A stretch of DNA of 64,000 nt from an uncultured Pseudomonadota bacterium (lineage in GTDB: Bacteria; Oederibacteriota; Muellerivitia; Muellerivitales; Muellerivitaceae). The stretch is from assembly GCA_963836235.1 (NCBI GenBank), contig CAWIIP010000002.1, positions 1,056,001-1,120,000 on the forward strand, written 5' to 3'. How positions within the stretch are numbered: position 1 is the first letter of the stretch; the number at the start of each line of letters is the position of its first letter. The translations under genes were made by a program, and so were the position numbers. This document shows, piece after piece, positions 15,413 to 57,427 of the stretch. The notes below the pieces were generated by a model. That model ran no database searches, had not been told where the DNA came from, and saw only the letters and a list, made by a program, of their open reading frames with translations.

Positions 15413-18277
15413 TTAGTGGATAACCAAGAGTTTGGTGATGGAACGGTGCCCATCGACAGTGACGATTATGTAATAGACTCCATCAGCCAAAAGCCTCCCC
15501 GATCTATCGGTGAGTTCCACCGTGACCGGCACGCCCGAAAGCACGTTCCGGAATATCACATCCTGCACTTTCCGGAAGGCGAGGGTGAATATCTCCACAC
15601 GCACATCCGAAGAGCCTGAATAAGCAGGTGGAAGCACATTAACCGTCGGTCCATTAACCGGGTTGGGATAAACCACCACACCGGAGTGGCCCGTCGGGCT
15701 AGCCGTAGGGGTTTCTGTCGAAGTAAAAGAGCTAGAAGAAGTGGATGTTGCCGTAGAGGTCGCCGTATTGACTATGGTGTTGGTGGGAGTAGATGTAACC
15801 GTTGGAGTGGTGGTCTTGGTTGGGCTGCTGGTGGGTGTGAAGGTGGTGGTCGGGGTAGCCGTACTTGAGGATGTGGCGGTGGCGCTATTCGTCGGCGTAC
15901 TCGTCATCGTGGGTGTGATAACCGAGGTATTGGTCGTCGTCGCCGAAGGCGTGCCGGTAGCCGTGCGAGTAGTTGTGAAGGTTGGCGTCGTTGATGAAGT
16001 CGAAGTGGCGGTTGAAGTAGGGCTGTTAGTGGGTGTGGCCGTCAGTGTGTTCATGGCCGTATTGGTCGCCGTAGAAGTAGTGGTACTGGTGGGGCTGGAA
16101 GTCGTCGTATTCGTCACTGTATTCGTTCGGGTGACTGTTGCGGTGTTGGATGGGGTTGATGTGGCGCTATTTGTCAGCGTATCCGTCACCGTGGGCGTGA
16201 TGACCGAGGTATTCGTCGTCGTCGCTGAAGGCGTGCCAGTAGCCGTGCGGGTAGTTGTCGATGTTGTAGTCCCGGATGCGGTTGAAGTGGTCGTTGCCGT
16301 GGGACTATTGGTGGGGGTGGCTGTCAGGGTGTTCATGGCCGTATTGGTCGCCGTAGAAGTAGTGGTACTGGTGGGGCTGGAAGTCGTCGTATTCGTCACT
16401 GTATTCGTTCGGGTGACTGTCGCGGTGTTGGATGGGGTTGAGGTGGCGCTATTTGTCAGCGTATCCGTCACCGTGGGCGTGATGACCGAGGTATTAGTCG
16501 TCGTTGCTGAAGGCGTGCCAGTAGCCGTGCGAGTAGTTGTTGATGTTGGAGTCCCGGATGCGGTTGAAGTAGTGGTACTGGTAGGGCTGGAAGTCGTCGT
16601 GTTCGTCACTGTATTCGTTCGGGTGGCTGTCGCCGTGCCGGTGGGCGTATTGGAAGGCGTTGAAGTCAGTGTGTTCACCACCGTGTTGGTTGAAGTCGAG
16701 CTTGCGGTGCTGGTGGCTGTATTGGTACGGGTTGCCGTCGGAGTAGCTGTGGCAGTACCTGTTGGACTTGAAGTCACCGTATTCGTCGCGGTATTCGTCC
16801 TAGTCGACGTGGGGCTGGCCGTAGGGGTTGAACTGGGGGTTGCCGTCGCCGTATTAGCCACGGTGTTCGTCGCTGTCAATGTTGCCGTTTTTGTCGCCGT
16901 AGCCGTGGGGCTGTCGGTAGGGGTACTGGTGCGGGTGACCGTGGGAGTGAAGGTAGAAGTACTGGTAGCTGCGGCAGGGGTGAAAGTCTTGGTGGGCGTA
17001 TTCGTGGGGCCACAGGCTGGGAAGGCCACATCATCCGCCCCCGCCATGGCCGCATTATAGGTAGTCACTGCCGCCGTATTGGAGGGAGCTTTACCGTTAA
17101 TTAGACAGTTGCAATCGAAAGTCACTCCCTGAGTATTGAAGACGTCAAAGACTTTAGAACCCGTCAGCGTACAGGCGGCAAACAATACATTGGAAACTGG
17201 CGCCTGCGGCAGGCCCCAAACGATCCCCACGTTGGCGGTTCCGGTCGCGGCTTGGCTGGCGGTGACATTTTGGAAAGTGATGTTGTCCCAATAGGGAGTG
17301 GTACTGTTAGCCGCCGAACCCGTATCCGTTGAGGGGCTGGAGGGGACCGTGGGGTAGTAGCTGTACATCAAGATCGGATTGACCATGATGTTAGACATCG
17401 TAATATTGGAATAAGTGATGTTTGAGGTGATGCCACCTTCTGTGTTGTTGGATTTGAGCCTTAAGCCGTATTGAGTCCCATTGAAGACGCAATTGTTGAC
17501 CAGCACATTACTCACTCCGCCGGAGGTGATGCTGCCGATGGAAAGCCCATGGCCAGTCCCGAAGGTGCAACCCTGGACCGTGACTCCATTACAGGCGTTG
17601 GAACCGCCGATTTGGACTACGTCGTCCCCGTCGCTGATATAGCAATTTTGGATATTTACGTTAGTACCGCGCAGGTCAATGCCATCGGTATTGGGCGAGG
17701 GCCAGGGCGCAGTGATGCTCAAAGCCGAGGCCAGAATGTTGGTGCCGTTTCCTAAAAATTGAATATGGAATTTGGGTGAATTTTGAACCGTGATTCCCGA
17801 AACCGTGACTCCCTTGCATCCTGTGAGCTCGATCATGGCGGGAGGGCGGTTATCAGTTCCCCCGCCGTTGAAATAGTTCCACCAGGCAAGCCCTTGTCCA
17901 TCCATGACTCCGCTGCCATTAATGGTGATATTAGTCAAACCCGAACCATAAAGGAAATCGGTGCTGACGGGGAAAGTTCCCATGGCGGTCATCTGCAGGG
18001 TGGCCCCAGCAGAGAGTTGAAAAGTCATGTTGCTTTTGAGGGTGACAGGGCCGCTAAAGAAAGTACCGGCCGGAACCACGACCGTCCCGCCACTTCCCAC
18101 GGCGTTGATGGCGGCCTGAATTGCGGCAGCGTTGTCGGCGCTGCCCGTTGTGGCGTTATAAGGAGCGGAGGTGATAGTGATCGTTTGGGCGGAAGCGGAA
18201 GCGGCGCAAAAGAAAATAAATAAACCTAGTACCCGGTAAAATCGAGTCGATCCAGAAACGTTTTCAATTTTCTTCAT
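15413..18277 (-). CDS. GH28 polygalacturonase + stalk + CTD
   Basis: All four GH28 motifs present: NTDGID, DGDD, GHGLSIGS, RLKS. Signal peptide. Confidence 0.92.
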   Translation of the reverse strand: MKKIENVSGSTRFYRVLGLFIFFCAASASAQTITITSAPYNATTGSADNAAAIQAAINAVGSGGTVVVPAGTFFSGPVTLKSNMTFQLSAGATLQMTAMGTFPVSTDFLYGSGLTNITINGSGVMDGQGLAWWNYFNGGGTDNRPPAMIELTGCKGVTVSGITVQNSPKFHIQFLGNGTNILASALSITAPWPSPNTDGIDLRGTNVNIQNCYISDGDDVVQIGGSNACNGVTVQGCTFGTGHGLSIGSITSGGVSNVLVNNCVFNGTQYGLRLKSNNTEGGITSNITYSNITMSNIMVNPILMYSYYPTVPSSPSTDTGSAANSTTPYWDNITFQNVTASQAATGTANVGIVWGLPQAPVSNVLFAACTLTGSKVFDVFNTQGVTFDCNCLINGKAPSNTAAVTTYNAAMAGADDVAFPACGPTNTPTKTFTPAAATSTSTFTPTVTRTSTPTDSPTATATKTATLTATNTVANTATATPSSTPTASPTSTRTNTATNTVTSSPTGTATATPTATRTNTATSTASSTSTNTVVNTLTSTPSNTPTGTATATRTNTVTNTTTSSPTSTTTSTASGTPTSTTTRTATGTPSATTTNTSVITPTVTDTLTNSATSTPSNTATVTRTNTVTNTTTSSPTSTTTSTATNTAMNTLTATPTNSPTATTTSTASGTTTSTTTRTATGTPSATTTNTSVITPTVTDTLTNSATSTPSNTATVTRTNTVTNTTTSSPTSTTTSTATNTAMNTLTATPTNSPTSTATSTSSTTPTFTTTRTATGTPSATTTNTSVITPTMTSTPTNSATATSSSTATPTTTFTPTSSPTKTTTPTVTSTPTNTIVNTATSTATSTSSSSFTSTETPTASPTGHSGVVVYPNPVNGPTVNVLPPAYSGSSDVRVEIFTLAFRKVQDVIFRNVLSGVPVTVELTDRSGRLLADGVYYIIVTVDGHRSITKLLVIH
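15869..16912. repeat. Stalk segment shared with 12223..13266 (and partly with ~6886..7427)
   Basis: Direct sequence comparison. Confidence 0.9.
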
Positions 18278-18539
18278 TCTTTCGCCTCAAATGGATTCCG
18301 TTCTTCAAAACGGAATAACGCGGGAACAGGTAATACTTAGTACCTGTTAATGGGAGTTTTATTCCACAAATCGCACAACTTCAATACAGAAAGAGTGAAA
18401 CTATTTCAGACTTGTTTCGTCCCGTTTCCAACCTGTTTTGAGGTGAAACCAAATCCAGTGCCTTTTGTGAACCAGTCTGCTTCCCGCCCGGGGCCGCCAT
18501 AATCGCCAAGGACAACCCAAGGAAAGGTATTGCAAAGGA

Positions 18540-27536: not shown

Positions 27537-30500
27537 TTACCTTACGACTAAAAGTTTGGTAACGAACCTGCCTTGGGGCGTTTGGATTACGACGTAATAG
27601 AGCCCGTTGGCCAAGGGCTTCCCGTCCCTGTCCGTCAAGGGTAAAGAAATGTCTAATATTCCCGCAGAAACATTGAACAAGGTGATCTGGTTTACTTTCC
27701 GGAAAGCCAGGGTGAAGACCTCCACCTTCACTTGGGCCGCGAATGACACCAAGGAAACCTGTACCGTCACTGGTCCCGGACCCGTTGCCGGATTGGGATA
27801 AACAATCATCGTGGCCTCTGGAGTGGGCGTGGTAGATGGTGTCCCCGTCGGTGTAGAAGAGGAAGTCACTACCGTCGTAGAGGTGGGCGTCTGAGTGGCG
27901 GTGGCTATCGTGACTGTCGCTCCACTTACCGGCATACCGCTGAAAAGAACCGCTTCCCCGTTTGTCCCAGCGCCCCCTGTCACGCTGAACTCGTAAGTTC
28001 CTGCGGGTGCGCTAGTCGAAAAGTTCACCACCACTTCATAGGTCACCGCACCGTTACTCGGCGGTATTACGTTATTGAGACTAAAGATCGCCGTCGATCC
28101 GCTGAATGTTCCGGAAGAAATGACCGTCCCACCATCCACCAACGATATGGAAGTGATTGCCATAGGAGAAGTTCCTGATTCCGTAAGGGTCAAGCTGTTC
28201 ATCGTGACCGCATTGTTCCCCGGATTGGTCAGTTGGATTTGCTGAACCGTGACTCCTGCCGCCCCCGGAAGTTGAGTGGAGTTATTCGGAGGGCTTGAAC
28301 CTTGGGAAGCCGATACAGTTACGACAGTGGGTGTGGCCGTTAATGTAACAGTCAAAGTGGCTGTTAAGCTGGCCGTTGGGGTTGTCGTACGAGTCGGGGT
28401 ATTCGTCACTGTATGGGTTGGAGTTGCCGTAGTGGTTTGAGTAGCCGTATTGGCCAGGGTATTGGTAGGAGTGTAGGTTGTTGTTTTAGTAGCCGTATTC
28501 GAGGCGGTAGGTGTCGTACTATCGGTGGTTGTATTCGTAAAGGTACTGGTGGCAGTCGTCGTGGCTGTATTGGTCGCGGTATTGGCTAAGGTATTCGTGG
28601 GTGTGGAAGAAGCCGTCGGGGTTGCTGTGTTTGAGGTTGTGGCGGTTGGGCTGTTAGTAGCTGTCTTCGTCGAGGAACTCGTGGCGGTCGGGGTGGGCGT
28701 ATTGGTGGCACTATTGGCTAAGGTGTTGGTCGGCGTAAAGCTAGTGGTTCGGGTGGCTGTGTTTGTTGTTGTCATGGTTGGAGTATTAGTCGCAGTTTCG
28801 GCCAAAGTATTGGTCGGCGTTGAAGAAGCTGTTTGAGTAGCCGTATTCGCCAAGGTATTCGTGGATGTTAAAGAAGCCGTTGGAGTCTGGGTATTTGAGG
28901 CGGTAGCCGTCGGACTATTAGTAGCGGTATTCGAAGCAGTCATCGTAGGACTGTTGGTCGCAGTATTTGCCAGTGTATTCGTAGGAGTCGCCGTGGCAGT
29001 ATTGGATAGGGTATTGGTCGGGGTTAAAGTTACCGTTTTGGTAACGGTATTCGAAGCGGTTGTTGTGGCACTGTTGGTGGCGGTATTCGCCAGGGTAGTG
29101 GTAGGTGTCGCAGTAGCGGTTTGGGTCGCAGTATTGGGCAGGGTGTTAGTAGGGGTCGAAGTCAAGCTATTGGTTGGGGTGAATGTCGTCGTCTTCGTTG
29201 CCGTATTCGTCGGCGTGGAAGTAACCGAGGTCGTCGGTGAGCTGGTTTGGGTGTTTGTACGGCTGGCTGTGGGAGTCGAAGTAGTGGTGGAACTGGGGGT
29301 TGAAGTGACCGTCCGCGTGGCGGTATTGGACACCGTCGCGGTGGGGCTGTTGGTTCGGGTGACCGTCGGTGAAAGCGTAGGTGTCGGGCTGTTGCCTCCC
29401 GGCGTGGGGGTGGGCGTGGCATAACCGGTCAATTCCAATCGCACATAGTCATACTCAAAACCTTCACCCAGACTGGCTCCACCGGTCGGCCGTAGGCCGA
29501 TGTCGATCTCGTTTGTACCCGTCTTCAGTTTATTACCTGCGAAATCCAGGTAGGCGTCGCCCCAGTCCCCCTGAGAACCCAGGCGGAGGATCGAGTCGAA
29601 ACTGACGTTCGGCGGGTAGAAACCGGTAGTCGCGTTGGTGATCGTAGTGTAGTTGCCGTCCGTGGAAGCCATGAGCGAAGCGGTTTGGATGGTCCCATTG
29701 ATCGTGAGGATACAGGCCGAACTAAAGGCGGAGGCGAAGGCCATATAAAGCCGGGCGTTTTGGGCCGCCGTGGGCGCGGTCGCCAGGTTAAAAAAGATCT
29801 TGGACGTTGACCCGGCGTAGCCTGTCCCGGAAGGAACAGTGGGCTGGCAATAGTTCCAGTCGGTTCCAGGATCGCTCGTCCCCACCACAAAGCTGACCCC
29901 GTTAGGATATTGGGTCGGATAGGCCATAAACCCACCCCAAGTCGCCGGAACATCATAAGGGGGGCCGCCCGCATAGGCCGGCAGGATGCCGCTATAGGGC
30001 GTCGAAAGATGTTCCCCGTTATTAAATTCGTTGGAGTCCCGATCCGGTGTGCCGATTTCCCACACCGTGGGCCCCAAACGCAAAGGCGACCAGGTAAGGG
30101 CGCCCAGGTTCAAGGACTGGCCTGCGGTCACGGTAACGTTCGCCTGCTCAAAGGTGCCGACCACGCCGGGACCAAAAGCCCAGAGGTTATAAGTGCCGGG
30201 CAAAATGTTAGGGATAGTAAAACTGCCGCCCGTCCCCGTTTTAACCCAGAACTGGCTGGTTAGGTACTGTTGTTGGAAATCCACCCCCCCGTCGACCGGC
30301 CCCAGCCCGATCCAAAGGCTGACCGGCGAGGTTCCCGGATTGTAGGGGTCGTTGATGGCGAGGGTACCGCTCACCGTGGCGCGGCCGGACGCCTGGGGAT
30401 AGACCGTGCCGGTTCCACCGGCCACCGGCTGGGGATTGAACCAGGTATAAGGCCAAGCACCCTGCTCGGCGGCGGCTTGCGCCTGCGCGTCGGCCCAAAG

Positions 30501-31496
30501 GACCCGGGCCTTCAGGGAAACGGGATCACTGGAGGCACCGGTATACTGGTTGGCGTAAATGAAAGCCGGTCCGAAGGTTTTGGACGAGAAACTTCCTGCG
30601 GGCTGGTCTTGAGTGAGGCCGAACCCATAGTGCCCGCCTCCGAACATATCCAGCAATGTGTTGCCGATGTGCTCCGTGAGCTCCCGATGCATGGGGCCAC
30701 CATCTTCAAACTCGTGGCTGGGCAGCGTCTGCCAGACGCCGTAATTGGTGGTCGAGGAGGCCCAGCCCCAGGTGTTGACCTTTCCCAGGGGAGCGCTGTA
30801 GGAATATTTACAATTCGTCAGTCCATTATAGATTCCAGCGGTATATTGCATCACTTCCGGGGGCGCTCCCGCCACTGTCGTGACCGCGGTACTGGGAGGA
30901 GCCATCTGCCTGAACCGGTAAGGGTCCACGGCCAGCCAGTCGAAGATCGAACCCACGTACATGTTGGTGCGTAGTTCGGCGCCGAGATAGTCGGGGTAGC
31001 TGGCCTCGTGGGTGAGAATCATCGTATCGTAGATGCCCTGCTGTCCGCGTAAGAGATCGTAATAGACGGCCATGTCCATGGGGCTGGCCGTTGATTGGAG
31101 CCACACTTCCGCCTGGTTGCCGCCGTTGTTGGCGGGATTTACGGTCAGCGTATAGACGGGGTTCGCCAGGGTGGGCCCGCCAGAGCCGTCGAAGTAAAAA
31201 TACCCGCCGCCATTGCCTCCAGCCAGAAGGTTCGTGCCGTTATAGGTGAAATTCGTGACATTACCGTTGGTTGTGTTGATGACAAAGGAGACAATGCCAT
31301 TGGCTAGCGTAACGTTGGTGCCGTTTTGGGTCACGGTTACGTTGGCTCCGGTGCCGGTACCACCGCCGGGAACGTTGGCTTGAGATAAACATGGGGTTAA
31401 GAAAAGAATCGCAAATCCAAAAAGCCTGGCCCATCCCGATAATTTTAGGGTCAAGGGGATAAAATCGGTTTCATTTGAAGACATGGAAAATTTCAA
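27537..31496 (-). CDS. PL4 rhamnogalacturonan endolyase + stalk + Ig-like module + CTD
   Basis: KYSYS, HEFEDGGPMHRELTEH, GGHYG, KTFGP, FTIPNILPGTYNL, WEIGTPDRDSNEF, YDYVRLE. Confidence 0.88.
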   Translation of the reverse strand: MKFSMSSNETDFIPLTLKLSGWARLFGFAILFLTPCLSQANVPGGGTGTGANVTVTQNGTNVTLANGIVSFVINTTNGNVTNFTYNGTNLLAGGNGGGYFYFDGSGGPTLANPVYTLTVNPANNGGNQAEVWLQSTASPMDMAVYYDLLRGQQGIYDTMILTHEASYPDYLGAELRTNMYVGSIFDWLAVDPYRFRQMAPPSTAVTTVAGAPPEVMQYTAGIYNGLTNCKYSYSAPLGKVNTWGWASSTTNYGVWQTLPSHEFEDGGPMHRELTEHIGNTLLDMFGGGHYGFGLTQDQPAGSFSSKTFGPAFIYANQYTGASSDPVSLKARVLWADAQAQAAAEQGAWPYTWFNPQPVAGGTGTVYPQASGRATVSGTLAINDPYNPGTSPVSLWIGLGPVDGGVDFQQQYLTSQFWVKTGTGGSFTIPNILPGTYNLWAFGPGVVGTFEQANVTVTAGQSLNLGALTWSPLRLGPTVWEIGTPDRDSNEFNNGEHLSTPYSGILPAYAGGPPYDVPATWGGFMAYPTQYPNGVSFVVGTSDPGTDWNYCQPTVPSGTGYAGSTSKIFFNLATAPTAAQNARLYMAFASAFSSACILTINGTIQTASLMASTDGNYTTITNATTGFYPPNVSFDSILRLGSQGDWGDAYLDFAGNKLKTGTNEIDIGLRPTGGASLGEGFEYDYVRLELTGYATPTPTPGGNSPTPTLSPTVTRTNSPTATVSNTATRTVTSTPSSTTTSTPTASRTNTQTSSPTTSVTSTPTNTATKTTTFTPTNSLTSTPTNTLPNTATQTATATPTTTLANTATNSATTTASNTVTKTVTLTPTNTLSNTATATPTNTLANTATNSPTMTASNTATNSPTATASNTQTPTASLTSTNTLANTATQTASSTPTNTLAETATNTPTMTTTNTATRTTSFTPTNTLANSATNTPTPTATSSSTKTATNSPTATTSNTATPTASSTPTNTLANTATNTATTTATSTFTNTTTDSTTPTASNTATKTTTYTPTNTLANTATQTTTATPTHTVTNTPTRTTTPTASLTATLTVTLTATPTVVTVSASQGSSPPNNSTQLPGAAGVTVQQIQLTNPGNNAVTMNSLTLTESGTSPMAITSISLVDGGTVISSGTFSGSTAIFSLNNVIPPSNGAVTYEVVVNFSTSAPAGTYEFSVTGGAGTNGEAVLFSGMPVSGATVTIATATQTPTSTTVVTSSSTPTGTPSTTPTPEATMIVYPNPATGPGPVTVQVSLVSFAAQVKVEVFTLAFRKVNQITLFNVSAGILDISLPLTDRDGKPLANGLYYVVIQTPQGRFVTKLLVVR

Positions 31497-31713
31497 TTTC
31501 CGCCGCCATCTGTTAAATTTTGGAATCCCCGCTTGTCAAAGCTGGGATGGGATAGACTCTCTCATACCTTGGATTCAAGCCTAGATGGTTTTATTCCCTT
31601 TTTTAAAAAAATTTACCTATATTTTTGAATTTACCGTTTAAACAAGAAAAAAGCCAAAAAAGACATGTGATTCATGGATTTTCGACATAAGCCAACAACT
31701 GGAGTGAAAAAGC

Positions 31714-33090
31714 CTACTTTTGAATCGCTAGCACTTTGGGCTTAAACCGGTCTTCCCTTCCCGAATCGTACTTCAGGTCTATCTGGTAAAAGTAATGTCC
31801 TGGCGCAAAGGCCTGGATATTGAGCTCACTTTGTTGGACCCCGGCTGGTTTCGTATCCTCTAGGCTTCCCGCCAGAACGCCCGAAGCGTTCCACACCCGG
31901 ATATCGGCCTTTCCACTTTCCGCCATGTTATAGACGAAACTGACTGTGGGGCCGCTGGAAGGATTGGAGTAAACATAGGGTTGGTTGCCGGGCGCCGGGG
32001 GAGTGGGGGTCGGGCTGCAGACCGCCAAGATAGTCACTGGGTTGGAAGTAACCGGCCCCAGGGGTGCGCCTAAATTCAATTGAGCTGAGTTATTGAAAGT
32101 ATTATTGCAACTATTGGCTGTCGCTGCGACTTGAACCGTCGCGGCTGAACCAGCCACTAAACTTCCCAAGTTCCAATTGACGATTTGCCCCGTGACTGAC
32201 GGACTACCAGTGGCCGTAAAATAATTCAACCCAGCGGGCAAAGTATCCAACAGATTCACATTATCAAAATCCGGCGATTGGACAACTTGGACGTTGTCAA
32301 AAACCACCTCCGAATTCCCCTGCACTTGGATTCCGGGAAAGCCTGGCGCCAATTGGACCGTTGTGCTTGCCGTGGCCACCTGGACTCCATTCACATAGGC
32401 GGTCAATATGGCGGGGTTGACTCCCGACACGGCTAACTTGATCGTAGACCAAACCCCAGTGTTGATCGTCGCGCTCGCGGTCATAGGGGTTTGAAAAGCA
32501 CCGCCATCCTCCTGAACCACTAGGTTGATGTTGTTACTGGTTCCCTGGGAAACCGTCATCTGGTATTGGCCGTCGGCAACATCATTGCGCCACATTAAGG
32601 CAGCCGCGTTTCCACTGTTGGGAAAATAAAAATCGGCCTGGATTGAACCATCTGTTACCGGGCCCGCCCCGTTGTAAACCAATCGGCCGCAAAGGGGACC
32701 GCATCCATTGTTATAAACCGCCGACACGGCTTGGCTTCCCGGGCTCGTGGTGCCGTTTAGTACGTTGATCACCGTCTGGGTAATGGCATAACCTGAACTT
32801 CCGCCATAGGTCGTCCATCCCGTGGGCATCCCCCCTGCGGTGTCGGCTTCAAATGTGTCCATCGTGGTCACGGGCACGCCGGTGTTGCCATAGGCTAGGT
32901 TGTAGATGACCACTTGCCCTCCCGTGACCACCGTGGAAGGGGAAGATAGGTTCAGGAAAGCGGAGGATGATATCGTTGATGTGGCCGTGGGTGAGGGCGT
33001 GGCGGTTTGGCCCAGGGCTTGACCCACCCTAAAACCTCCTCCCCAAAAGGCGATAAATAAAAAAGACAGAATTGTCCTCATCCAAAACAT
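31714..33090 (-). CDS. Secreted protein: DUF11-like domain with an inserted lectin-like domain, plus a divergent CTD
   Basis: Signal peptide. VVTGGQVVIYNLAYGNTG ... NVNLLDTLPAGLNY...VNWNLGSL (DUF11 halves). Tail VYSNPSSG...IRVWNASG...FAPGHYFYQI...KVLAIQK. Confidence 0.62.
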   Translation of the reverse strand: MFWMRTILSFLFIAFWGGGFRVGQALGQTATPSPTATSTISSSAFLNLSSPSTVVTGGQVVIYNLAYGNTGVPVTTMDTFEADTAGGMPTGWTTYGGSSGYAITQTVINVLNGTTSPGSQAVSAVYNNGCGPLCGRLVYNGAGPVTDGSIQADFYFPNSGNAAALMWRNDVADGQYQMTVSQGTSNNINLVVQEDGGAFQTPMTASATINTGVWSTIKLAVSGVNPAILTAYVNGVQVATASTTVQLAPGFPGIQVQGNSEVVFDNVQVVQSPDFDNVNLLDTLPAGLNYFTATGSPSVTGQIVNWNLGSLVAGSAATVQVAATANSCNNTFNNSAQLNLGAPLGPVTSNPVTILAVCSPTPTPPAPGNQPYVYSNPSSGPTVSFVYNMAESGKADIRVWNASGVLAGSLEDTKPAGVQQSELNIQAFAPGHYFYQIDLKYDSGREDRFKPKVLAIQK

Positions 33091-33112
33091 GAAAAACCTC
33101 TTTTTTTCGCCT

Positions 33113-34444
33113 TCACTTAGAATCCGTTGATCCTTTATATTTCACAAGCCAATCCCGCAAAGCCTTGTTGTCTGGTTTTAATTGGAGGACTTTTTCAAAG
33201 CACTGAATGGCATAAACTTTTTCATCCAAATGGTAATAATCATTAGCCAAGGCCTGCCAAAGAAGATCATCCGATGGTTTTTCCTTGATCGCATCCACGT
33301 AAATTCCCATGGCTTCTTTCAGTTTACCTTCTTTTTCTAACTCCTGTCCTTGCGCCAGTGGATCGGTGGAAATTTTAAAATGAACTTCCACATCTTTTGA
33401 GGGGGTTTCGGGCGCCTGCTGTACCACCGTCACCGGTACCTGAACGGGCACCCTCACCACTTCTTTAGGCAGGTCGAATTGGTAGCCCAAGCTGATGCGA
33501 TTGGATGACCCCAAACTACCGAATGGAAGATAAGCGTAATCCAAAGATAAGGAAGAAATTTTGATCCCTGCCCCGGCGGTAAGGCCTGTGAGACCCTCGA
33601 TCTGGTTGTCATAAAAAGTCTGTTGATAACCCAATCGTAGGGCCCATTGCCGGTCCAGTGAACCTTCCAATCCTGCTTGGGCGGAGCCCACTCCTCCCGG
33701 TGTCCAAGACCCGGCCAGGGCCGCCAAAAGGGTGAAATGGGGATTGAGATCAACAAGGACCGATCCCCCGCCATTCAATTCACCGGCAAGGGCATTACCG
33801 GCCACGGGAGTGCCAAAATTTAGGTAGGAGACACCCAGCCGCAGATTTTTTTGGGGTAACCAAAGAAGACCAGCGTCACCGGCCAAACTGGTGTAAAGGT
33901 CGTTCACGACCTTTTGTTGGAGTCCCCTCAGCGCGAGACCGACCGAAAATCCGGGGAACCATTCCATTCCCCATCCGGCGGTAAAACCCACATCACTATC
34001 ATTGAAACTACCTTCGGATACACCATAAGTATTCCGAAGATCGAGGCTCCCCCATCCCACATAATCCAACGAAAAAGCCAGCCCCCCCAAACTCCCAGCG
34101 GGAAAGCCCGCCGTAAGGGTTTCCTGAAAAGTCCCAGCCAAGTAGCTGTTATGGTGAAGGGCGACGTCGGGGCTTTTCAAATTCGCGAGTCCCGCCGGGT
34201 TGAAAAAAAGGGCGGAGGTGTCGTCGGCCACTCCCACGAAGGCTGATCCCAAGGCTAAGTCCCGGGCCGAGCCCTCAAAGTTTTCCAGGGGCGCCGCCAG
34301 GCCCGCTGTCCCCGTTACTGTTTGTGCAAACGAATTTTTAGAAAAAAGTGTCGTCATCAGAGAAATACATAGAAAGGCTAGGGCAAAAGGAATTTTAAGT
34401 TTTGAAAAGCCGGACGGCTTCATGGCTGCCTCCGGCAAAATCAT
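33113..34444 (-). CDS. PorV/PorQ-family (FadL-like) outer-membrane beta-barrel with C-terminal TPR
   Basis: SARDLALGSAFVGVADDTSALFFNPAGLA (PorV/FadL N-terminal signature), alternating strands, LDYAYLPFGSLGSSNRISLGYQF, then TPR helices (AIQCFEKVLQLKPDN). Confidence 0.8.
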   Translation of the reverse strand: MILPEAAMKPSGFSKLKIPFALAFLCISLMTTLFSKNSFAQTVTGTAGLAAPLENFEGSARDLALGSAFVGVADDTSALFFNPAGLANLKSPDVALHHNSYLAGTFQETLTAGFPAGSLGGLAFSLDYVGWGSLDLRNTYGVSEGSFNDSDVGFTAGWGMEWFPGFSVGLALRGLQQKVVNDLYTSLAGDAGLLWLPQKNLRLGVSYLNFGTPVAGNALAGELNGGGSVLVDLNPHFTLLAALAGSWTPGGVGSAQAGLEGSLDRQWALRLGYQQTFYDNQIEGLTGLTAGAGIKISSLSLDYAYLPFGSLGSSNRISLGYQFDLPKEVVRVPVQVPVTVVQQAPETPSKDVEVHFKISTDPLAQGQELEKEGKLKEAMGIYVDAIKEKPSDDLLWQALANDYYHLDEKVYAIQCFEKVLQLKPDNKALRDWLVKYKGSTDSK

Positions 34445-34470
34445 AACATTCCCGGAAGGCTCTTCCTATT

Positions 34471-34497
34471 TATAGATACGTCGGATAAACAAAAGTT
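34471..34497 (-). promoter_or_regulatory. Candidate ECF-type promoter (AACT-N17-TCTATA) upstream of the PorV-like gene
   Basis: Minus strand reads TAACTtttgtttatccgacgtaTCTATA. Similar to 50488..50517. Confidence 0.4.
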
Positions 34498-35140
34498 ATT
34501 TGCCCGTTTCAATACTCACGTTTTTGGACATTTCGGTGGCGCCGGATTTGACCCGAATGCGGTAATCCCCCGTGGGGGCCTGGGACCCATCAGAAAGAAG
34601 GCCATCCCAACGGATCGACCATTTTCCCGGGGCAAGGCTGCCTTGGTAAAGGGTACGAACTGTTTGTTCTTTCGGATCGAGGATACAGACTTCCACCGGC
34701 GCCGGTTTATCCAATTCCACGACCACACTCAAGCGGTTTCCCTCGGCCGTGGAACCCGTCAAACGCTGGGGAACCTGGAGAGGCGGAGGTGGCAAGATAA
34801 CTTTGGGCCGGGAAAGGGTAGCGGGTATCACCACTTTCTCCAGAGGTGTTGCGGTCTGTGCTGTTTCCAGAACGGCTTTGGGCCAAAGAGACCAGGCGAG
34901 AATACCCGCCGAGAAAGTGGTCGCCAACAAGGCCAATTTGGTCAGGGAAAGGGCCGGATGAGGGAGCCCAAAGTTTTTCGGAATCATAGGTACTGGCAAT
35001 CCCATGGCCAGATATTCTTGTTTCATTTTTTCGCCGAACCGAAGGGCCTCTTCGGAGGAATTTCCCAAAAGGTCTTCAAGACTCTGGGCTTCGGCTTCGG
35101 TCAGATTCCGGCTGAAAAATTCATTTACTAGGTTTGTCAT
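34496..35140 (-). CDS. Putative anti-sigma factor: one TM helix + FlgD-Ig/CTD-like extracytoplasmic domain
   Basis: Overlaps the sigma stop (ATGA). N-terminal FFSRNLTEAEAQSLEDLL, then a TM segment, then VRTLYQGSLAPGKWSIRWDG...GSQAPTGDYRIRV. Confidence 0.75.
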   Translation of the reverse strand: MTNLVNEFFSRNLTEAEAQSLEDLLGNSSEEALRFGEKMKQEYLAMGLPVPMIPKNFGLPHPALSLTKLALLATTFSAGILAWSLWPKAVLETAQTATPLEKVVIPATLSRPKVILPPPPLQVPQRLTGSTAEGNRLSVVVELDKPAPVEVCILDPKEQTVRTLYQGSLAPGKWSIRWDGLLSDGSQAPTGDYRIRVKSGATEMSKNVSIETGK

Positions 35141-35742
35141 AGCTTCCCTTCTTGCAACATCTTCTCGACCTTTTCTTTCAGCCCTGCCGTACAGCGGGCC
35201 AAGCGGGACATGACCGTTCCCATCGGAACTTTCAAGGCCCTGGCTATCTCGATATAACTTGCGCTTTCTTTCATCCTCAATTGAAGCATCTTTTTACAGG
35301 GCTCCCCCATGCTTTCCAAGGCCCGGTCGACGGTTTCCATCTTCGCTTTCCGTTCCTTGTCCCGGTCCGCCTGATCGGCGGCTTCCAAAGCCCGGGGCTT
35401 AAGTCGTTCTTCCAGGTCTTCTTCGGCTTGCGACACCATCCGGCCGCGCTTTCGGAAATGCCGGTAACACTGGTGAATGCAAATTTGCGTCAGCCAGGTA
35501 TCCAGGCTGGAACGGAACTCAAACTGGTCTAACTTTTGGAAAGCAGCCAGAAAAGCTTCCTGAAGGATGTCCTCGATTTCCGGGTCATTGGACCCCATGA
35601 AATAAACACAAAAGCTATAGAGCTTTTGCTGGTGGGCCCGGTAAAACTCCGTTTTGGCCCTCTCGTCGCCCTTTAGGATCCGTCCAACCAGTTCCCGCTC
35701 GTCCAAAGGAGCTCCTATCGACTTAGTACCATTTCGGGCCAA
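35137..35742 (-). CDS. ECF RNA polymerase sigma factor
   Basis: EDILQEAFLAAF...FEFRSSLDTWLTQI (region 2) and SYIEIARALKVPMGTVMSRLAR (region 4). Confidence 0.93.
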   Translation of the reverse strand: MARNGTKSIGAPLDERELVGRILKGDERAKTEFYRAHQQKLYSFCVYFMGSNDPEIEDILQEAFLAAFQKLDQFEFRSSLDTWLTQICIHQCYRHFRKRGRMVSQAEEDLEERLKPRALEAADQADRDKERKAKMETVDRALESMGEPCKKMLQLRMKESASYIEIARALKVPMGTVMSRLARCTAGLKEKVEKMLQEGKL

Positions 35743-35857
35743 AATATTCCCTGGCGGCCCTGAATTTATTTCGAAGAAAGTGAACTGACAAGATACGACT
35801 TATCACCGGAAGTAAAAAATCAGAGAGGTTTTCAATTGCTATGCCCGAATTAAAAGC

Positions 35858-35873
35858 ATGAAACCGGTTTCAT
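35858..35873. promoter_or_regulatory. Perfect 16-bp palindrome ATGAAACCGGTTTCAT
   Basis: Upstream of the ECF sigma operon; same family as 9374, 15144 and 25016. Confidence 0.65.
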
Positions 35874-36050
35874 TAGAAAGTTCAATGGATTATAAGACAG
35901 AAAGGATGGCTTCAAAAGGTTGGAGAAGAGTCTCTAGGATTAAAATTAAATTTATGCTGTTTTGAAATTACCGGTTCACCAATAGAACGGCTGTTCCATC
36001 AGTGAATCAAATTCTGCTTTAATTCCAACGGAAAATCCCATTTCGCAGTT

Positions 36051-39000
36051 TTAACGAAGGATCAGCAATTTCCCGATAAATCGGCCCTGGTTGGTTTGGA
36101 TCACAGTGTAATAAAGCCCGCTGGCCAGGGGTTTTCCCCAGTTGTCGTTAAGAATAACCGTGACCGGCCCATAGACCTGTGGTGGATAAGACTTCTCCTG
36201 GACCTTCCGGAAAGCGGTAGTGAAAATCTGAACCTTAATACCAGATTGCCCTAAGTAAGCTGGCGGTAAAACTTGAATGGGGTTCCCATCACTGGGATTA
36301 GGATAAAGAAGTGCCGCGGATCCGACTATTGGAGTAGGTGTCGGCGAACCGCCGGAAGCAAGGAAAACTGTCCCAGTCACGGTAGGCGTACTTGTAGCGG
36401 AGGCTGTGGGAGTGGCTGTAGCGCTTGTAGTAGGGGTTGTAGTGGGTGTTTCCGTGGGTTCGGCGATGGTAATGATGGCCGATCCAACCGGATTCCAATA
36501 AACAGCCGCGGGCTGGCCCGTAACGAGGTCCACACCTGAAGGGCCCGGAATACTGATCCCATAGGTACCGGTCGGAGCGGAAGAATTGAAATTGTAAACG
36601 ACCAAATAAACCTGTGACCCCAGGGTTCCCTGTAGATAGCCATTGACCCCGATATTGGCCGTCCCGTTATCCGAGGGATAGGTTCCCGTCCCCAAAAGGG
36701 TGTCCCCCGCATCCACCTGGCCATCACCATTATTGTCGGCGTAAATGGCGACGTTGGTGATCCCCGTCTGGTCGTTACCTGTTCCCGATGCAGTCAATTG
36801 GATGGCCGTAATGGAAACGGGATCGCTACCTTCATTAACAAGCTTAAATTGCATAACCGCCACAAGCGTGGATCCCGAAACTTGGGTGCTGTTGGAAGGC
36901 GGCGCCGGACCCGTCGAAACCGCGATAGTCACGCGGGTAGGGGAAGAAGTCGGTGAAAAAGTTGGGGACGGGGTAACCGTAAACGTCATCGAATCCGTTG
37001 GACTATTCGTGGGAGTGGCGCTATTTGGCAAAGTCGAGGTGGAGGTTGCCGTAGAAGTTGGGGTCCTTGTCACCGAGGGTGTAAGGCTATTGGCGGGTGT
37101 GGGAGTAGCGGTAATGCTGGCCGTCAAGGTCGTGGTGGATGTGGGTGTGAAGGTGGAACTAAAAGTGGCGGTGGTAGTTGCGGTATTGGTGGGAGTGATA
37201 GTGAACGTGGAGGAAGGCGTGAAGGTTAAGGATGGGCTTAAGGTTCCGGTGGGGCTATCGATTGGAGTAAAGGTGATCGTAGGCGTGTAAGTTACCGTGG
37301 AGGTGGTGGTTGAAGTGGCGCTATTTGTGGAAGTAAACGTGGCCGTGGAAGTGGGGGTCGCGGTTTCGGTCATGGTAGCGGTTCGCGAAGCCGTATTGGA
37401 GGCGGTCGAAGTGGCCGAGAAGGTTGCCGTAAAGGTGGCGCTTGAGGTGGGTGTTGAAGTTCGGGTCAGGGTGATTGTGTTGGTTAAGGTGTTCGTTGGG
37501 CTGGCCGTTGGACTATTGGTAAGGGTCCCGGTCACCGTTTTCGAGGGGGTTTGGGTCGGGCTTGCGGTAGAAGTGCGAGTCGGTGTTGCGGTAGGCGTAG
37601 GCCCGGTGGAAGTGACAAAAGCCGAGGCCATGATCATATAGGAAGCGGTGTAATAAAGTCCCGTTTCGTTCACCACCCAGGGCACGGTCTGATTGCCGCT
37701 GGAGTCCACGTAATCCCAATCACGGTATTCTTTCTCATAGGGCGGTTCCACATTGCCGGCTAACATCGGCGGTTGGGCTAGTCCCCCGGCGGCTTGGTAC
37801 CCATGGCTGGGCCCATCCGGAACGATTCCTGGGGGTGGGCCGAAGCTGGAAGGTCCGCTGTCGCTGATGCCGAAATTATCCGTTCCCGAATAATAGGGAT
37901 AGAGCGGGTCGATGACCGAAGCGGGTTTGCCGATGAAATTGTTATAGGAAAAAGTGACTCCGTAATTCCCGAACCAGGAGTGGTAAATACGCCAAATTCC
38001 ATGGGAGGCGCCAAGAGCGGCCGCGTTGGTCATGAGGGTCATGTTTACCGGGTTGCTTCCATTCATGTAATGAAGAAAGTCCTCGGCGTGTTGCAGGCAC
38101 TGGGCGCTGGTATAGGTCCCCGTCGCCCCCAGCTTGGAGGCCCATACTAGGTCCATGCCGTAGTTCATCTTTACTTCGTCAGCTCCCCAAAAATAGTCGT
38201 AACTGTGCATACCGGAGTTATAAAAATCGTTCTGGGCGAACAGGTCGCCAATCAGGTTGGACCAATCACCTTTCATGTAGTTGACCACTGACACAGTGGC
38301 GCCGGAGGCTTGCATGTAGGTCAACATACCCCAATTCTGCTGGAATAAATCCTCATTAAGCCAAAACCCATTCCAGGTTTGATAGTTATCCACGATGGAT
38401 TGGGCAGCGCTAATGATCGAGGCGGGCCCGCTAAGGGCTTCTTCCATACGGAAGATCTCAGCGGCGGCCCAAAACCGTTGATCACTGGCCGTGGCCGTGG
38501 ACACGAAGCTGTTCCAGGTGTTTTCCGCGGCGGTCCGTAGTGTCACCGCGTAACTGGCCAAGCCCGGTACTCCGAACATGACCCGGGCCGCGTGTGACAT
38601 CAGGGCCACGAACTGGGCCTCCCCCGCAGGATTAGGAGGATAGTAATAACGCGTGGTGGGATCGGTGCTGGGCGGGGAACCAGTCGTATAAACCGTTTGG
38701 TGCACCACCGAAAGCACATGGTGGTCGGTCATCTGCATCTTTAAGTACCAGTCCAATTCCCACTTGGCTTCGTTCAGGATATCGGGATTGCCGTTGCCCG
38801 ATTCGGGGATGTTGCTTTGCAGGCCTGTGAAAAGGGAGGGATTCCACTCGTAGGCCGTGAGGAGGTCCCAAAGAGCTTCCCCGCTGTCCCCGCCCCAATT
38901 GTTGCAGGCCCCGGTTGGAGTCTGGCCGATGTATTTGTTGTAATCCCCGGCATCGTGCCATCCCCCCATTAGGTTCAAGGTGCCGTAGCTGTTGGGAAAA

Positions 39001-39776: not shown

Positions 39777-42700
39777 TTAACGCAGGAGGAGGAGTTTGAC
39801 TACGGAGTGGTAACCGTTATGGTTTGAGATCACCACATAGTAAAGGCCACTAGCCAGAGGTGCCCCTGACTTGTCGTTCAGGGCCAAAGGAATATGCCAG
39901 GTCTTCGCTGTTGTACTCCCGCTCACCGAAGCCGTCACGCCCGGTGACGAGGTCGACACCGTGTTGTCCTGCACATCCCGGAAGGCCACCGTGAATATCT
40001 GCACACTCAATGTATCCGACGCTTGACTCAATGTCGCCGACACCGTAACGGGTCCTCCCGTGGAGGGGTTCGGGTAAACCACTGGTATCGAACTCGGTTG
40101 AAGGGTGGAAGTCGGCGTCAACGAAGCCGTGGAATTGGGCGTCGAGGACGGTGTAGAGGTCGCCGAGCTAATCGTGACGACAGCCCCGGGGACCGGCAAT
40201 CCGCCGAAGCCAACAGCTTGGCCATTGTTCCCTGCTCCGCCTGTCACACTGAATGTGTAGGTACCCGTCGGCGCGCTAGTCGAGAAGGTCGCCACCACTT
40301 CATAAGTCACCGCCCCATTACTGGCCGGAATGACATTATTGGAAGTTAAACTACTCAAATTAAAGGTCGCCGTCGTTCCAGTGAAACTGGCCGTGGAAAT
40401 AACCGTTCCATTGTCCACCAGCGATACGGAAGTGATTCCCGTAGGGGATGCACCTGACTCGGTAAGGGTCAAACTGCTCAAAGTGACGGCATTTGCTCCG
40501 GGATTGGTCAATTGGACTTGTTGTACGGCCACGTTGGAAGCTCCCGCCGGTTGAGTTGAATCGACAGGCGGGCTGGACCCTTGCGAAGCCTGCACCGTTA
40601 CTTGGGTGGGAGTCGGGGTCGGGGTGATCGTAGGCGTATTGGTCAGCGTGACCGTTGCCGTAAAGGTTGGGCTGTTGGTTAAAGTTTCGGTGGCCGTATT
40701 GGCCAGAGTATTGGTAGGTGTGGAAGTCGTTGTTTTAGTTTCCGTATTCGAAGTCGTAAGCGTTGGGGTGTTGGTAGCGCTATTCGCCAAGGTATTAGTG
40801 GCTGTCGCCGTGGCCGTACTGGTGGCGCTATTCGCTAAAGTATTCGTGGGCGTGAAAGTCGTTGTTTTAGTTTCCGTATTCGAAGTCGTAAGCGTTGGGG
40901 TGTTGGTAGCGCTATTCGCCAAGGTATTAGTGGCTGTTGCCGTGGCGGTATTCGTGGCACTATTCGCCAAAGTATTCGTAGGCGTCGACGTGGCCGTATT
41001 TATGGCCGTATTTGTCGTCGTACTGGTAGTCGTCGAGGTCGGGGTTTTGGTCGCCGTCATTGTCGTCGTATTCGTAGGGGTATTGGTAGCGGTCACCGTT
41101 GTCGTATTCGTCACCGTATTAGTGCCGGTTTTCGTGGCCGTGAAGGTCGCCGTGCTTGTTCCCGTCATAGTAGGCGTCGATGAAGGTGTTGACGTCAAAA
41201 CGGTTCCCGTGGGACTGAGGGTCGGCGTATCACTAATAGTGGCCGTGGCGGTGTTAGTCGTCGTGGAGGTAGCGGTTTTAGTCGCCGTGTTTGTCGCCGT
41301 TTCCGTAATGGTGGAAGTAGTCGTACCGGTAGTTGTGGAAGTCACCGTTCGGGTGGCGGTGGAAGTGGCCGTATTGGTCGCCGTATTCGTCAGGCTATTC
41401 GTCGGGGTGGCCGTCGGGCTATTCGTGGGGGAAGGCGTCGCCGTACGGGTTGCCGTATTGGAAGTAGTGCCTGTCGCCGTACTCGTGGTCGTATTGGTCG
41501 CCGTGCTGGCCAAAGTGCTGGTGGAAGTCGAGGTCACCGTTGAAGTAACCGTCTTCGTAGGGCTATTTGTGGTTGTATTCGTCGGACTATTCGTAGTCGT
41601 ATAGGTCGCGGTTACCGTAGCGGTATTACCCACCGTATTCGTTGGGCTGGCGGTAACGGTAAAGGTCGGTGTTCGCGTTGGACTGTTGGTGGCGGTCGTA
41701 GTAGGTGTAAATGTAGCTGTGGAAGAAGGGCTACTTGTAGCTGTCTTTGTAAGGGTCCCGGTTGGGGTTAACGTGGGAGTATTAACCACGGTGTTGGTGG
41801 CGGTGGAGGAAGGTGTTCCTGTGGGCGTACGAGTGGCGCTGGAAGTAGGCGTACCGGTCGGGGTACCGGGTACCACCGAGGGTGTGGCGGTATTAATGAT
41901 GACGGGCGTGTAATAGCCGTTGGAAATTTTGGCAAAATGCATGCAAACCTGGTCCACCGAATACCCCAATGTCGCGGGATTACCCGCAGTATCCCATTGG
42001 ACGGAAGTCACATTGGTCAATGCCTGGTCACGCGTGAGGGAGACGCTTCCGTTCGAGGCCAACCCATAGCAGAATCCCGCGCTGTTCCAGTCCTGGCACA
42101 TGATCTCGTTGTAAGTGACGGTGACGGCCTGCCAGGTTGTGGTCACAGGGAAAGTATAGCCGAACTGGTTGGCGTTGCCGCCATTGGCGGGGTCAAGGGC
42201 GGGGTTGTAGAAATTTAAGCGGATGGTCATGGGCGCCGTCGATTTAATATAAAAGTTGATATCCACCAGTGAACAGGGGCCCGCCCCACCAACCGTCAGA
42301 TTCAAGAGATTGTTATATGGCGCATTCAGGGCGGTGGCGATGGCAAATCCTCCATATGTAGCGGGAGTGCTCAAGCCGTTGTCCATCCAGAAACCCGTCA
42401 CGGACGCATCCCAATTAGTTCCCGCGGCACCGGGAGATTGGAGAATATAGGAGGGACCGGAGACAATGGCACGGGTGGGCGTGGGATTGACCGGGGTGTT
42501 GTTCAAACTGGCATAGGAAAAAGTAAACCAGAAACCATTGGTTGAATTGATAAGGTTGTCGTCCTCTAAATCATCCAGCATGAAGCAAGGCATGGGCGTG
42601 GGGGTGGCGGGCGGGGTGTTGGCGGTACAACCGCCGCAGGCCATGTTGGGAAAGTTACCCGTTCCCACCATCAAACACATGAGGCCCAGTGTGTCCTGGA

Positions 42701-57370: not shown

Positions 57371-57427
57371 TGAGAGTCGTTATAAGTTTCTAATCCTGAG
57401 TGACTTTCGTTTCCAAAAAAGGAACCC

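Follow-up and report, generated by a model that had tools for sequence, protein, structure and literature searches.

A conserved cassette of ECF sigma factor, anti-sigma factor, PorV-like barrel and secreted protein as a candidate glycan-responsive signalling unit in candidate division FCPU426

Introduction

How might a diderm bacterium tell its transcription machinery which plant polysaccharide lies outside the cell? The question is raised by four co-oriented genes, here called the cassette, in a stretch of 64,000 nucleotides from an uncultured bacterium (assembly GCA_963836235.1, contig CAWIIP010000002.1, positions 1,056,001 to 1,120,000 of the forward strand), the whole of which we call the window. 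These genes encode a sigma factor of the extracytoplasmic function (ECF) type, a single-pass anti-sigma factor with a FlgD-like Ig domain, an outer-membrane barrel of the PorV family with a C-terminal TPR tail, and a secreted protein, the cargo, whose C-terminal tail is unusual. The original prediction, made from the letters of the window, saw in them a signalling module across the envelope, assembled from type IX secretion system (T9SS) parts, in which the anti-sigma factor would imitate the sorting tail of secreted proteins and the cell would sense either its secretion load or a ligand bound by the cargo. Here, we analyse the cassette in its own genome and in related ones. We see about an even chance that it is a glycan-responsive unit signalling from the surface of the cell to the sigma factor, and the role that seems most likely for the copy in the window is to tell the cell that pectin is outside and to switch on pectin-cutting enzymes.

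Results

Four adjacent genes form one conserved unit

All four open reading frames (ORFs) of the cassette lie on the minus strand (Table 1), and Pfam and NCBIfam matches confirm the identities first proposed for them. The sigma factor matches TIGR02937 (sigma70-ECF, 92.8 bits, cut-off 42.9) and Sigma70_r2 (56.6 bits, cut-off 24), with Sigma70_r4_2 below its cut-off (22.1 bits, cut-off 25.7). It consists of sigma-2 and sigma-4 regions only and is 189-201 residues long, as befits a member of the ECF group (group 4), and it reaches no NCBIfam equivalog cut-off, the best being PRK11922 with 105.5 of 204 bits. The four ORFs have the coordinates originally given; only the start of the sigma gene should probably be moved, to a TTG at 35706, 12 codons inside the longest ORF, because orthologues begin there behind AGGAG. 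The first 12 codons of the longest ORF overlap the promoter motif described below.

The four genes are one conserved functional unit. Within this genome, the best paralogues of all four proteins are found in three other loci that hold the same set, which makes four cassettes in total. Full-length homologues of the anti-sigma factor occur in 24 of 24 sampled genomes of the same family (30 of 30 by profile), and we took 20 loci around such homologues, from 18 related genomes of candidate division FCPU426, as the sample for synteny. The sigma gene adjoins the anti-sigma gene in all 20, a barrel is present in 17, a protein matching the cargo model in 19, and the complete set in 17, the incomplete loci being L042 (at a contig end), L047 (no barrel) and L048 (neither barrel nor cargo). 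The unit anticipated from a single locus is largely present in seven further loci, including three that belong to another family of the same phylum (G069): the sigma and anti-sigma genes are found in all seven, the barrel also in seven (once at a distance of 5.5 kb) and the cargo in five. Three gene orders occur (sigma, anti-sigma, barrel, cargo; sigma, anti-sigma, cargo, barrel; and cargo, barrel, sigma, anti-sigma), and the linkage has therefore outlived rearrangement. The patristic distances in the trees of sigma factor, anti-sigma factor and barrel correlate with rho 0.84-0.90 across 26 cassettes, which are kin and thus not independent, and one of whose barrels was mis-assigned (that of the second cassette in L035); this fits the duplication of the cassette as a whole. 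Chance adjacency of the four genes is ruled out by their fourfold recurrence and by the synteny.

A cassette-specific tail on variable passengers

Two regions make up the cargo: a passenger, with a DUF11 match (29.3 bits, cut-off 24.6), and the C-terminal tail. The latter falls just below the cut-offs of both models of T9SS sorting tails, with 21.3 bits for Por_Secre_tail (PF18962, cut-off 27) and 22.9 bits for TIGR04183 (cut-off 23), and among cassette cargos elsewhere, that of L082 passes the TIGR04183 cut-off of 23 with 25.5 bits, whereas scores of 25.1 and 23.7 bits fall below the Pfam cut-off of 27. By a tail model built from this genome, the ordinary tails of the window number exactly ten (E 1e-19 to 1e-26); the cargo and the anti-sigma domain also match it, at about 1e-10. 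The cargo tail is 20-23% identical to three of these ordinary tails, which are 46-51% identical among themselves, in line with the early observation that it differs from the other ten.

Across cassettes, the passengers are unrelated: ConA-like with DUF11 here and in close orthologues, PA14 with carbohydrate-binding module family 9 (CBM9), pectate lyase with malectin, a weak NHL match, or none, some cargos being a bare tail of 149 residues (L082). The last 95 residues have a mean column identity of 74% and 30 invariant positions, among them the motifs PYVxxNP, FAPGHYFY and YxSG. A model of this variant tail gives the four cassette cargos of the genome 172, 161.5, 72 and 38 bits, the next match having 37 bits. 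That next match is an ORF of 495 residues outside any cassette (G000:C2:1883065-1884552), with about the same score as the cargo of cassette 4, and it may be an orphan cargo of the variant-tail class.

The tail is predicted to fold as an Ig-like sandwich (predicted local distance difference test, pLDDT, about 90). Its model aligns with the tails of PorU, mirolase and RemA at Z 8.4-9.2, tied with generic Ig/FN3 domains among 48,161 representative solved chains; the modelled tail is compatible with those of the T9SS, in a match not distinct from generic Ig folds. In the model of the complete cargo, made from a 6-row alignment, mean pLDDT is 39.9 and only the tail (residues 367-458) is folded. 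The cargo profile finds one solved structure, RsgI3 (6qe7_A, E 0.0088, 18.3 bits), a weak lead. The cargo is, to our mind, the most telling member of the cassette. As judged from these sequences, its tail stays constant on glycan-binding heads that vary and is always encoded next to barrels of a single clade, as would be expected of a docking element, and the suggestion in the original prediction that the barrel is dedicated to the adjacent cargo fits a special tail found only on cassette cargos.

A PorV-like barrel with a C-terminal TPR tail

The barrel passes the cut-off of the PorV/PorQ family (NF033709, 114.7 bits, cut-off 90) and stays short of the equivalog cut-offs of PorV (NF033710, 40.6 of 250 bits) and PorQ (NF033711, 86.5 of 220 bits); TPR_2 matches residues 395-426 (29.2 bits, cut-off 27). 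An AlphaFold2 (AF2) model (pLDDT 76) has a signal peptide, N-terminal plug helices (60-88), 14 strands (93-322) and, after a disordered linker rich in Pro and Val (329-359), a TPR tail of five helices (362-438). The tail should be periplasmic, because both ends of an even-stranded barrel lie in the periplasm.

Does the barrel belong with PorV or with the FadL transporters? By fold, Foldseek places PorV chains of the Flavobacterium translocon at the top (8gl6_F, E 2e-14; 6h3i_F, E 4.7e-12), ahead of FadL (E 7e-9). By sequence, a profile of 17 orthologues finds PorV (6h3i_F) at E 5.7e-11 and no FadL among the 60 best rows of the search of solved structures. PorV thus comes ahead of FadL on both counts, in a comparison where PorV is itself FadL-like, and a grouping with FadL, which would have spoken against the original prediction, did not come about.

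Genome-wide, 21 ORFs have PorV-family matches, 16 of them over the cut-off. The TPR tail is present on all four sigma-linked barrels and on 2 of the 17 others, as told by a tail model that matches mostly generic TPR proteins and was used solely to find which PorV-family ORFs bear the tail. One paralogue joins barrel, FlgD_ig, OmpA and TPR in a single chain. It is one of two PorV-family barrels with C-terminal FlgD_ig and OmpA domains (G000:C4:87761-89962, L008:1357-3558; G000:C1:161508-163865, L077:2508-4865), of which one adds TPR and the other a Big_13 domain, an architecture of which we know no earlier description. The OmpA domain binds peptidoglycan, and FlgD-Ig and TPR domains therefore sit together below such a barrel, on its periplasmic side. 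This suggests that many PorV-like barrels of this organism are tied to the cell wall and bear periplasmic modules.

An anti-sigma factor with a FlgD-like Ig domain

The start of the anti-sigma gene overlaps the stop of the sigma gene by 4 nt (ATGA). The protein begins with a conserved cytoplasmic N-terminus of about 60 residues and has a single hydrophobic span (about residues 66-86); a Pro-rich linker then leads to the periplasmic FlgD-Ig domain, which occupies residues 131-199 (FlgD_ig PF13860, E 5.4e-13, 49.2 bits, cut-off 27) and in which the string VRTL...WDG...GDYRIRV is present. In an alignment of 21 rows, the invariant residues fall in the N-terminus and in the Ig domain. Judging by its position and conservation, the N-terminus would bind the sigma factor. 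This region (residues 1-60) has no Cys and no His, and the Pfam scan found no HxxxCxxC/zf-HC2 family, the mark of the class I (zinc-binding) anti-sigma factors. In public databases, the homologues (53 clusters) are named only 'hypothetical protein' or 'FlgD Ig-like domain protein'.

The proposal that this domain mimics a sorting tail found no support. It is 11-23% identical to both tail classes and lacks their N-terminal (Y/V)xNP motif and their terminal motif. Its profile finds, among solved structures, flagellar FlgD alone (7eh9_A, E 2.7e-10; 7bhq_A), and no sorting tail in the PDB at E up to 0.1. What survives of the proposal, on sequence grounds, would be solely the common Ig-like fold.

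Two observations on related anti-sigma genes may be added. The fourth and most divergent cassette of the genome (G000:C2:487057-492944, L076) lies directly downstream of the flagellar hook gene flgE; genes of the flgD type usually adjoin flgE, and this position may hint at the origin of the FlgD-Ig domain of the anti-sigma factor. The closest orthologue, from the same genus (L034:6953-7663, G001), is split in two by an in-frame TGA, either a sequencing error or a sign of a recently broken copy.

Predicted targets match the type of the cassette

A motif, GGAATA-N18/19-CT[ACT]A[GT][TC], stands directly before the ribosome-binding site and TTG start of sigma genes 14 times in the 20 related loci, and before three of the four sigma genes of this genome. 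Together with the 4-nt overlap, this conserved motif points to co-transcription of the sigma and anti-sigma genes from an autoregulated promoter, as is characteristic of ECF sigma factors. The -10 element tracks the type of the cassette: CTAAGT in the pectin type, CTCAT/CTAAT in the type with PA14 and CBM9.

The stricter pattern GGAAT-N19-21-CTAAGT occurs only four times in the 3.97-Mb genome, and two of these copies are in the window, one at the promoter of the sigma gene and the other before a gene for a polygalacturonase of glycoside hydrolase family 28 (GH28). The extended GGTACTAAGT is common to both, and the GH28 site scores 22.4 with the position matrix against 22.5 for the sigma promoter, which puts it among the top three matches of the genome. 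The GH28 site lies within a near-perfect palindrome (window 18312-18365), an inverted GGAATAA...TTATTCC pair enclosing an 8-bp stem AACAGGTA/TACCTGTT whose loop holds the -10 CTAAGT, and the pattern therefore also matches the plus strand at 18312; the palindrome may be a regulatory hairpin, an operator, or chance.

The gene directly downstream of the cassette encodes a rhamnogalacturonan lyase of the type of polysaccharide lyase family 4 (PL4). With no terminator-like site between 31496 and 31714, this gene is a probable co-transcribed or co-regulated output of the cassette. Directly after each of the six orthologous cassettes of the window's type comes a gene for PL4 (L033, L034, L036, L086) or GH28 (L037 and L038, from G003 and G018), the latter behind the motif in L037, and cassettes of the PA14 with CBM9 type are followed by genes for GH30-like enzymes with CBM3. 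In the 20 loci (265,704 bases), the pattern has 22 matches: 14 just before sigma genes, five just after the cassette and three elsewhere. Among the five, that of L037 precedes the GH28 gene and those of L041 and L043 precede GH30-like genes.

Six of the seven best matches of the matrix in the whole genome stand before ORFs, namely three sigma genes, the GH28 gene, a gene for a GH30-like enzyme with CBM3 directly after the barrel of cassette 2, and one for GH62 with CBM3; the seventh has no ORF. The strict pattern and the matrix replaced a regular-expression scan with a loose -10, which was not enriched (33 matches in the genome against 9-55 for scrambled patterns). A scan of positions 31000-36500 for sigma-70-type promoters and terminators did not rise above the shuffled expectation. 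Judged by these genes, cassette 1, that of the window, looks pectin-directed and cassette 2 xylan-directed, the latter from the usual substrates of CBM9, GH30 and GH62.

The enzyme island around the cassette

The genome (3.97 Mb, 99.4% complete) is that of an uncultured plant-fibre-degrading soil bacterium, and one paper links the FCPU426 16S cluster to the cellulose-degrading candidate phylum Goldbacteria (PMC7031533). By Pfam scan, the window is an island of plant-cell-wall enzymes: downstream of the cassette runs a co-directional string of genes for PL4, GH53, GH43, a beta-helix protein and GH28, and upstream lie those for GH9, GH8 and GH5. Most of the island's enzymes have long Thr/Pro linkers and an ordinary tail, and iterating the tail model inside the genome gives about 102 proteins with a C-terminal tail.

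Table 1. Features of the cassette and of its predicted targets, in coordinates of the window
Feature	Position	Strand	Basis or remark
ECF sigma factor	35137-35742	minus	longest ORF; TIGR02937, Sigma70_r2 and Sigma70_r4_2 matches
ECF-type promoter motif	35721-35750	minus	-35 GGAATA 35745-35750; -10 CTAAGT 35721-35726; 18 nt between
Single-pass anti-sigma factor	34496-35140	minus	FlgD_ig match; transmembrane span; 4-nt overlap with sigma gene
PorV/PorQ-family outer-membrane barrel	33113-34444	minus	NF033709; AF2 model; Foldseek; profile
Secreted sensor/cargo protein (putative sensor)	31714-33090	minus	signal peptide; probable ConA-like domain; DUF11; cassette-specific tail
Cassette-specific tail	31717-32001	minus	C-terminal part of cargo
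PL4-type rhamnogalacturonan lyase with ordinary sorting tail	27537-31496	minus	fn3_3 (PL4 domain II) 62.2 bits; directly downstream of cassette
Second promoter-motif copy, GGAATA ... GGTACTAAGT	18335-18365	minus	57 nt before GH28 start codon
GH28 polygalacturonase with ordinary sorting tail	15413-18277	minus	Glyco_hydro_28 177.6 bits; predicted sigma target

The island holds other elements. Two paralogous regulators of about 600 residues lie among the enzyme genes (1369-3165 and 9432-11240), each with a C-terminal AraC-type helix-turn-helix and a large N-terminal part of no known family, although one shows a weak match to PocR; with them, the island has a second control layer of another kind. 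At its edge is a STAND-type NTPase of 1095 residues (NB-ARC/AAA_16) with many TPR repeats (50931-54218), and a GH44 gene (58765-60336) is flanked by four plus-strand ORFs of 436-507 residues (at 54279-58738 and 60557-62068), for which Pfam has no family at E 0.001. Long plus-strand ORFs rich in Val, Ala and Gly (28500-29500, 36700-37700, 40600-41600 and similar) are mirror artefacts opposite the Thr/Pro linkers, and not genes.

Discussion

What could this unit do? We observed in these genomes the identities of the four genes, their conserved linkage, a cassette-specific tail on variable passengers, a promoter motif, and a match in type between cassettes and enzymes. The reading that we favour runs as follows. 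Once exported, the cargo would be kept at the cell surface through its cassette-specific tail, held by a PorV-like barrel of its own, and its variable passenger would bind a plant polysaccharide, here probably pectin or rhamnogalacturonan. The TPR tail of the barrel would extend into the periplasm from a flexible linker some 30 residues long and meet the FlgD-Ig domain of the anti-sigma factor, reaching up from the inner membrane on a Pro-rich linker of about 40 residues; together, these two flexible linkers could bridge the periplasm. Binding of the ligand outside would then alter the contact between TPR tail and Ig domain, the anti-sigma factor would be inactivated, and the freed sigma factor would transcribe from GGAATA-N18/19-CTAAGT its own operon, probably into the PL4 gene, as well as the GH28 gene 13 kb away. 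In such a scheme, the cargo would be the sensor, its tail the dock, the barrel with its TPR tail the transducer, and the anti-sigma factor with its FlgD-Ig domain the receiver.

The scheme keeps the core of the original prediction, a sigma/anti-sigma pair linked to a barrel and to a protein with a dedicated type of tail, and drops the idea of a tail mimic that reports secretion load. As for the stimulus, secretion load has become less likely and ligand binding by the lectin cargo likelier, given the glycan-binding passengers and the matching glycoside hydrolases among the predicted targets. As for the place of contact, the barrel was supposed from the start to engage the anti-sigma factor, and the geometry, with both termini and the TPR tail expected on the periplasmic side, argues against the barrel lumen and for the TPR tail as the likelier partner of the Ig domain. 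A complex prediction from alignments, of barrel residues 41-443 with anti-sigma residues 100-214, scored 0.01 against a mark of 0.32 and was counted neither way.

A number of points weigh against this scheme. First, surface display, docking of the tail in the barrel, the contact between TPR tail and Ig domain, the direction of the signal, and the way in which the anti-sigma factor is switched off are all steps that we infer. Second, the evidence that the passenger of the window binds glycans is thin: Laminin_G_3, the source of the ConA-like assignment, stays at 23.4 bits, below its cut-off of 27.6, residues 15-366 of the cargo model have pLDDT below 50, and a search of the ESM Atlas with residues 45-275 gave a best score of 0.88, below the trustworthy range, so that ConA-like and CBM-type folds are leads only. 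Third, the motif is found neither before the PL4 gene nor before the GH28 gene of L038, and the promoter matrix is weak genome-wide, with 11 matches against 7 in the reversed-sequence control at threshold 18 and 5 against 2 at threshold 20; only its top matches carry weight. Fourth, the export route is incomplete as far as NCBIfam models tell. The genome has a homologue of SprA/Sov (226.6 bits, cut-off 200; G000:C1:510622-516708, L079:2622-8708), and these models, used without a positive control, matched no GldK, GldL or GldM (GldN was not searched) and gave tail-level matches only for PorU, at a sensitivity that the control genomes, which lack a T9SS, do not gauge. The route may be like a T9SS without the known motor, or its parts may simply have diverged strongly. 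Directly upstream of the SprA gene is a two-component pair of the LytTR type.

Fifth, the barrel and the cargo are inside the operon that the sigma factor is thought to drive, and they could be its outputs only. The anti-sigma Ig domain, or something else, would then sense a periplasmic or envelope cue, and the two proteins would be regulon products along with the enzymes, the barrel as a dedicated anchor and the cargo as its surface glycan-binding protein. Both genes indeed lie behind an autoregulated promoter, many ECF operons carry their own targets, the contact between barrel and anti-sigma factor is our inference, and 3 of the 20 loci have the sigma and anti-sigma genes with no detected barrel. 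Mere outputs would, however, hardly explain that the linkage was kept through three gene orders and four duplications, that the TPR tail is concentrated on sigma-linked barrels, or that some cargos consist of the tail alone and lack any passenger that could be an output; moreover, no ligand site is known in the Ig domain, whose profile resembles FlgD alone. We regard this alternative as rather unlikely, if the most serious of those considered.

Less probable still, and in our view improbable, is a checkpoint on secretion or delivery, the successor of the secretion-load idea. Here, the Ig domain of the anti-sigma factor would stand in for a sorting tail and compete with cargo tails for the barrel or its TPR tail, and the sigma factor would report the load of export. 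In its favour, the small Ig-like sandwich is the fold of FlgD-Ig domains as well as of sorting tails, FlgD_ig matches even the ordinary tails of this genome, and the genome-built tail model reaches the anti-sigma domain, as given above. Against this stand the low identity of that domain to both tail classes, its lack of their motifs, and a profile that finds FlgD only. The types of cassette, moreover, track glycan-binding domains and matching hydrolases and not general secretion genes, and no T9SS component gene is among the targets predicted by the genome-wide matrix scan.

Finally, it is very improbable that the signal is coupled to uptake, with the barrel admitting an oligosaccharide or breakdown product that the TPR tail or the Ig domain binds and the cargo making or capturing the substrate at the mouth of the channel: the fold is common to FadL-type transporters and the cargo is an enzyme (pectate lyase with malectin) in two orthologous cassettes, where it would make oligogalacturonides beside the barrel, but the barrel is closer to PorV than to FadL by fold and profile, binding modules without catalytic activity make up most of the cargos, the compounds that FadL channels carry are hydrophobic, and PorV is, to our knowledge, not known as a solute channel.

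If the favoured scheme of surface sensor, barrel and anti-sigma factor holds, how does it compare with systems already described? SigI/RsgI of cellulolytic clostridia are paralogous sigma/anti-sigma pairs, each with a different carbohydrate-binding sensor and matching enzymes. The cassette shares with them the use of several paralogous pairs to switch on, as we predict, matching polysaccharide-degrading enzymes. In those monoderms, the binding module is part of the anti-sigma factor itself, whereas in the diderm cassette it is on a separate protein, anchored in our scheme at the outer membrane, and the gap would be bridged by a barrel and its tail in the periplasm. Within the T9SS, there are pairs of barrel and tail that keep a partner on the surface, namely PorV-PorU, PorQ-PorZ, and PorP/SprF with type B tails. 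As in the cassette, a barrel of the PorV family is reserved for one protein, whose particular tail is probably not cleaved off, and the genes adjoin; these pairs, some of them covered in PMC7712824, differ from it in having neither a linked sigma/anti-sigma pair nor a TPR tail, and their barrels from ours, which passes the family cut-off only and not the equivalog cut-offs of PorV or PorQ.

In the same source (PMC7712824), PorA of Porphyromonas gingivalis is a lectin-like, tail-bearing surface protein that binds PorV and feeds PorXY-SigP. This circuit, as far as that account goes, resembles the cassette in using a small protein at the surface that has a lectin-like domain and keeps its T9SS tail, and in a signal that ends at an ECF sigma factor. 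It differs, on the same account, in that a two-component relay (PorY/PorX) binds SigP, with no anti-sigma factor, in that PorV is a general shuttle, and in that the output is the secretion machinery; in the cassette, the gene of the putative sensor is accompanied by those of a dedicated TPR-tailed barrel and a membrane anti-sigma factor, and the outputs that we predict are enzymes acting on plant cell walls. The closest functional likeness is to Fec-type systems (FecA/FecR/FecI) and to the SusC-like/anti-sigma/ECF systems of Bacteroides, whose signalling across the envelope controls glycan loci, according to one paper (PMC2709373). In both kinds of system too, the genes for an ECF sigma factor and a single-pass anti-sigma factor go together with that for an outer-membrane barrel extended into the periplasm, and an autoregulated sigma factor drives neighbouring genes for substrate use, the substrates in Bacteroides being glycans, as we predict here. 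Unlike these, the cassette has a barrel of the 14-strand PorV/FadL type, a C-terminal TPR tail as its periplasmic extension, and a ligand-binding part that is a protein in its own right, secreted and with a sorting tail; Pfam and NCBIfam scans of the four proteins at E up to 0.01 found neither a TonB-dependent receptor nor Plug, STN or FecR. By analogy, the cassette would work like Fec and SusC signalling, and it is not a member of that kind. We found no paper describing it in the literature on PorV with anti-sigma and ECF factors, or on anti-sigma factors with FlgD and type IX secretion. The main text of the ECF reclassification (Casas-Pastor et al. 2021, PMC7826278) has no mention of FlgD, PorV, FadL or GGAAT, and its supplements may list such a group.

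What would the cassette mean more broadly? Tentatively, and with somewhat less than even confidence, we propose that PorV-family barrels whose TPR tails lie in the periplasm form a new class of signal transducers of the outer membrane, in which a sensor docks by a sorting-type tail and the barrel relays to a FlgD-Ig anti-sigma factor, and that the cassette has multiplied into parallel glycan-specific switches (for pectin, xylan-type substrates and others) in an organism whose SprA translocon appears to come without a recognisable GldKLM motor. If this is true, the cassette would be the FCPU426 counterpart of the SusC/SusD-linked regulators of Bacteroidota and of SigI/RsgI in clostridia, and a third architectural solution by which diderms sense polysaccharides outside the cell, made from parts of a secretion system and not from a TonB-dependent receptor. 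It would also give a role to many unexplained PorV-like paralogues outside Bacteroidota, of which this genome alone has 21 ORFs, and its triplets of sigma factor, anti-sigma factor and promoter would be candidate orthogonal switches. Since a binding module goes together in each cassette with a promoter and a set of enzymes, all of them readable, it may offer a direct handle on the substrate preferences of an uncultured, plant-biomass-degrading phylum from soil and peat.

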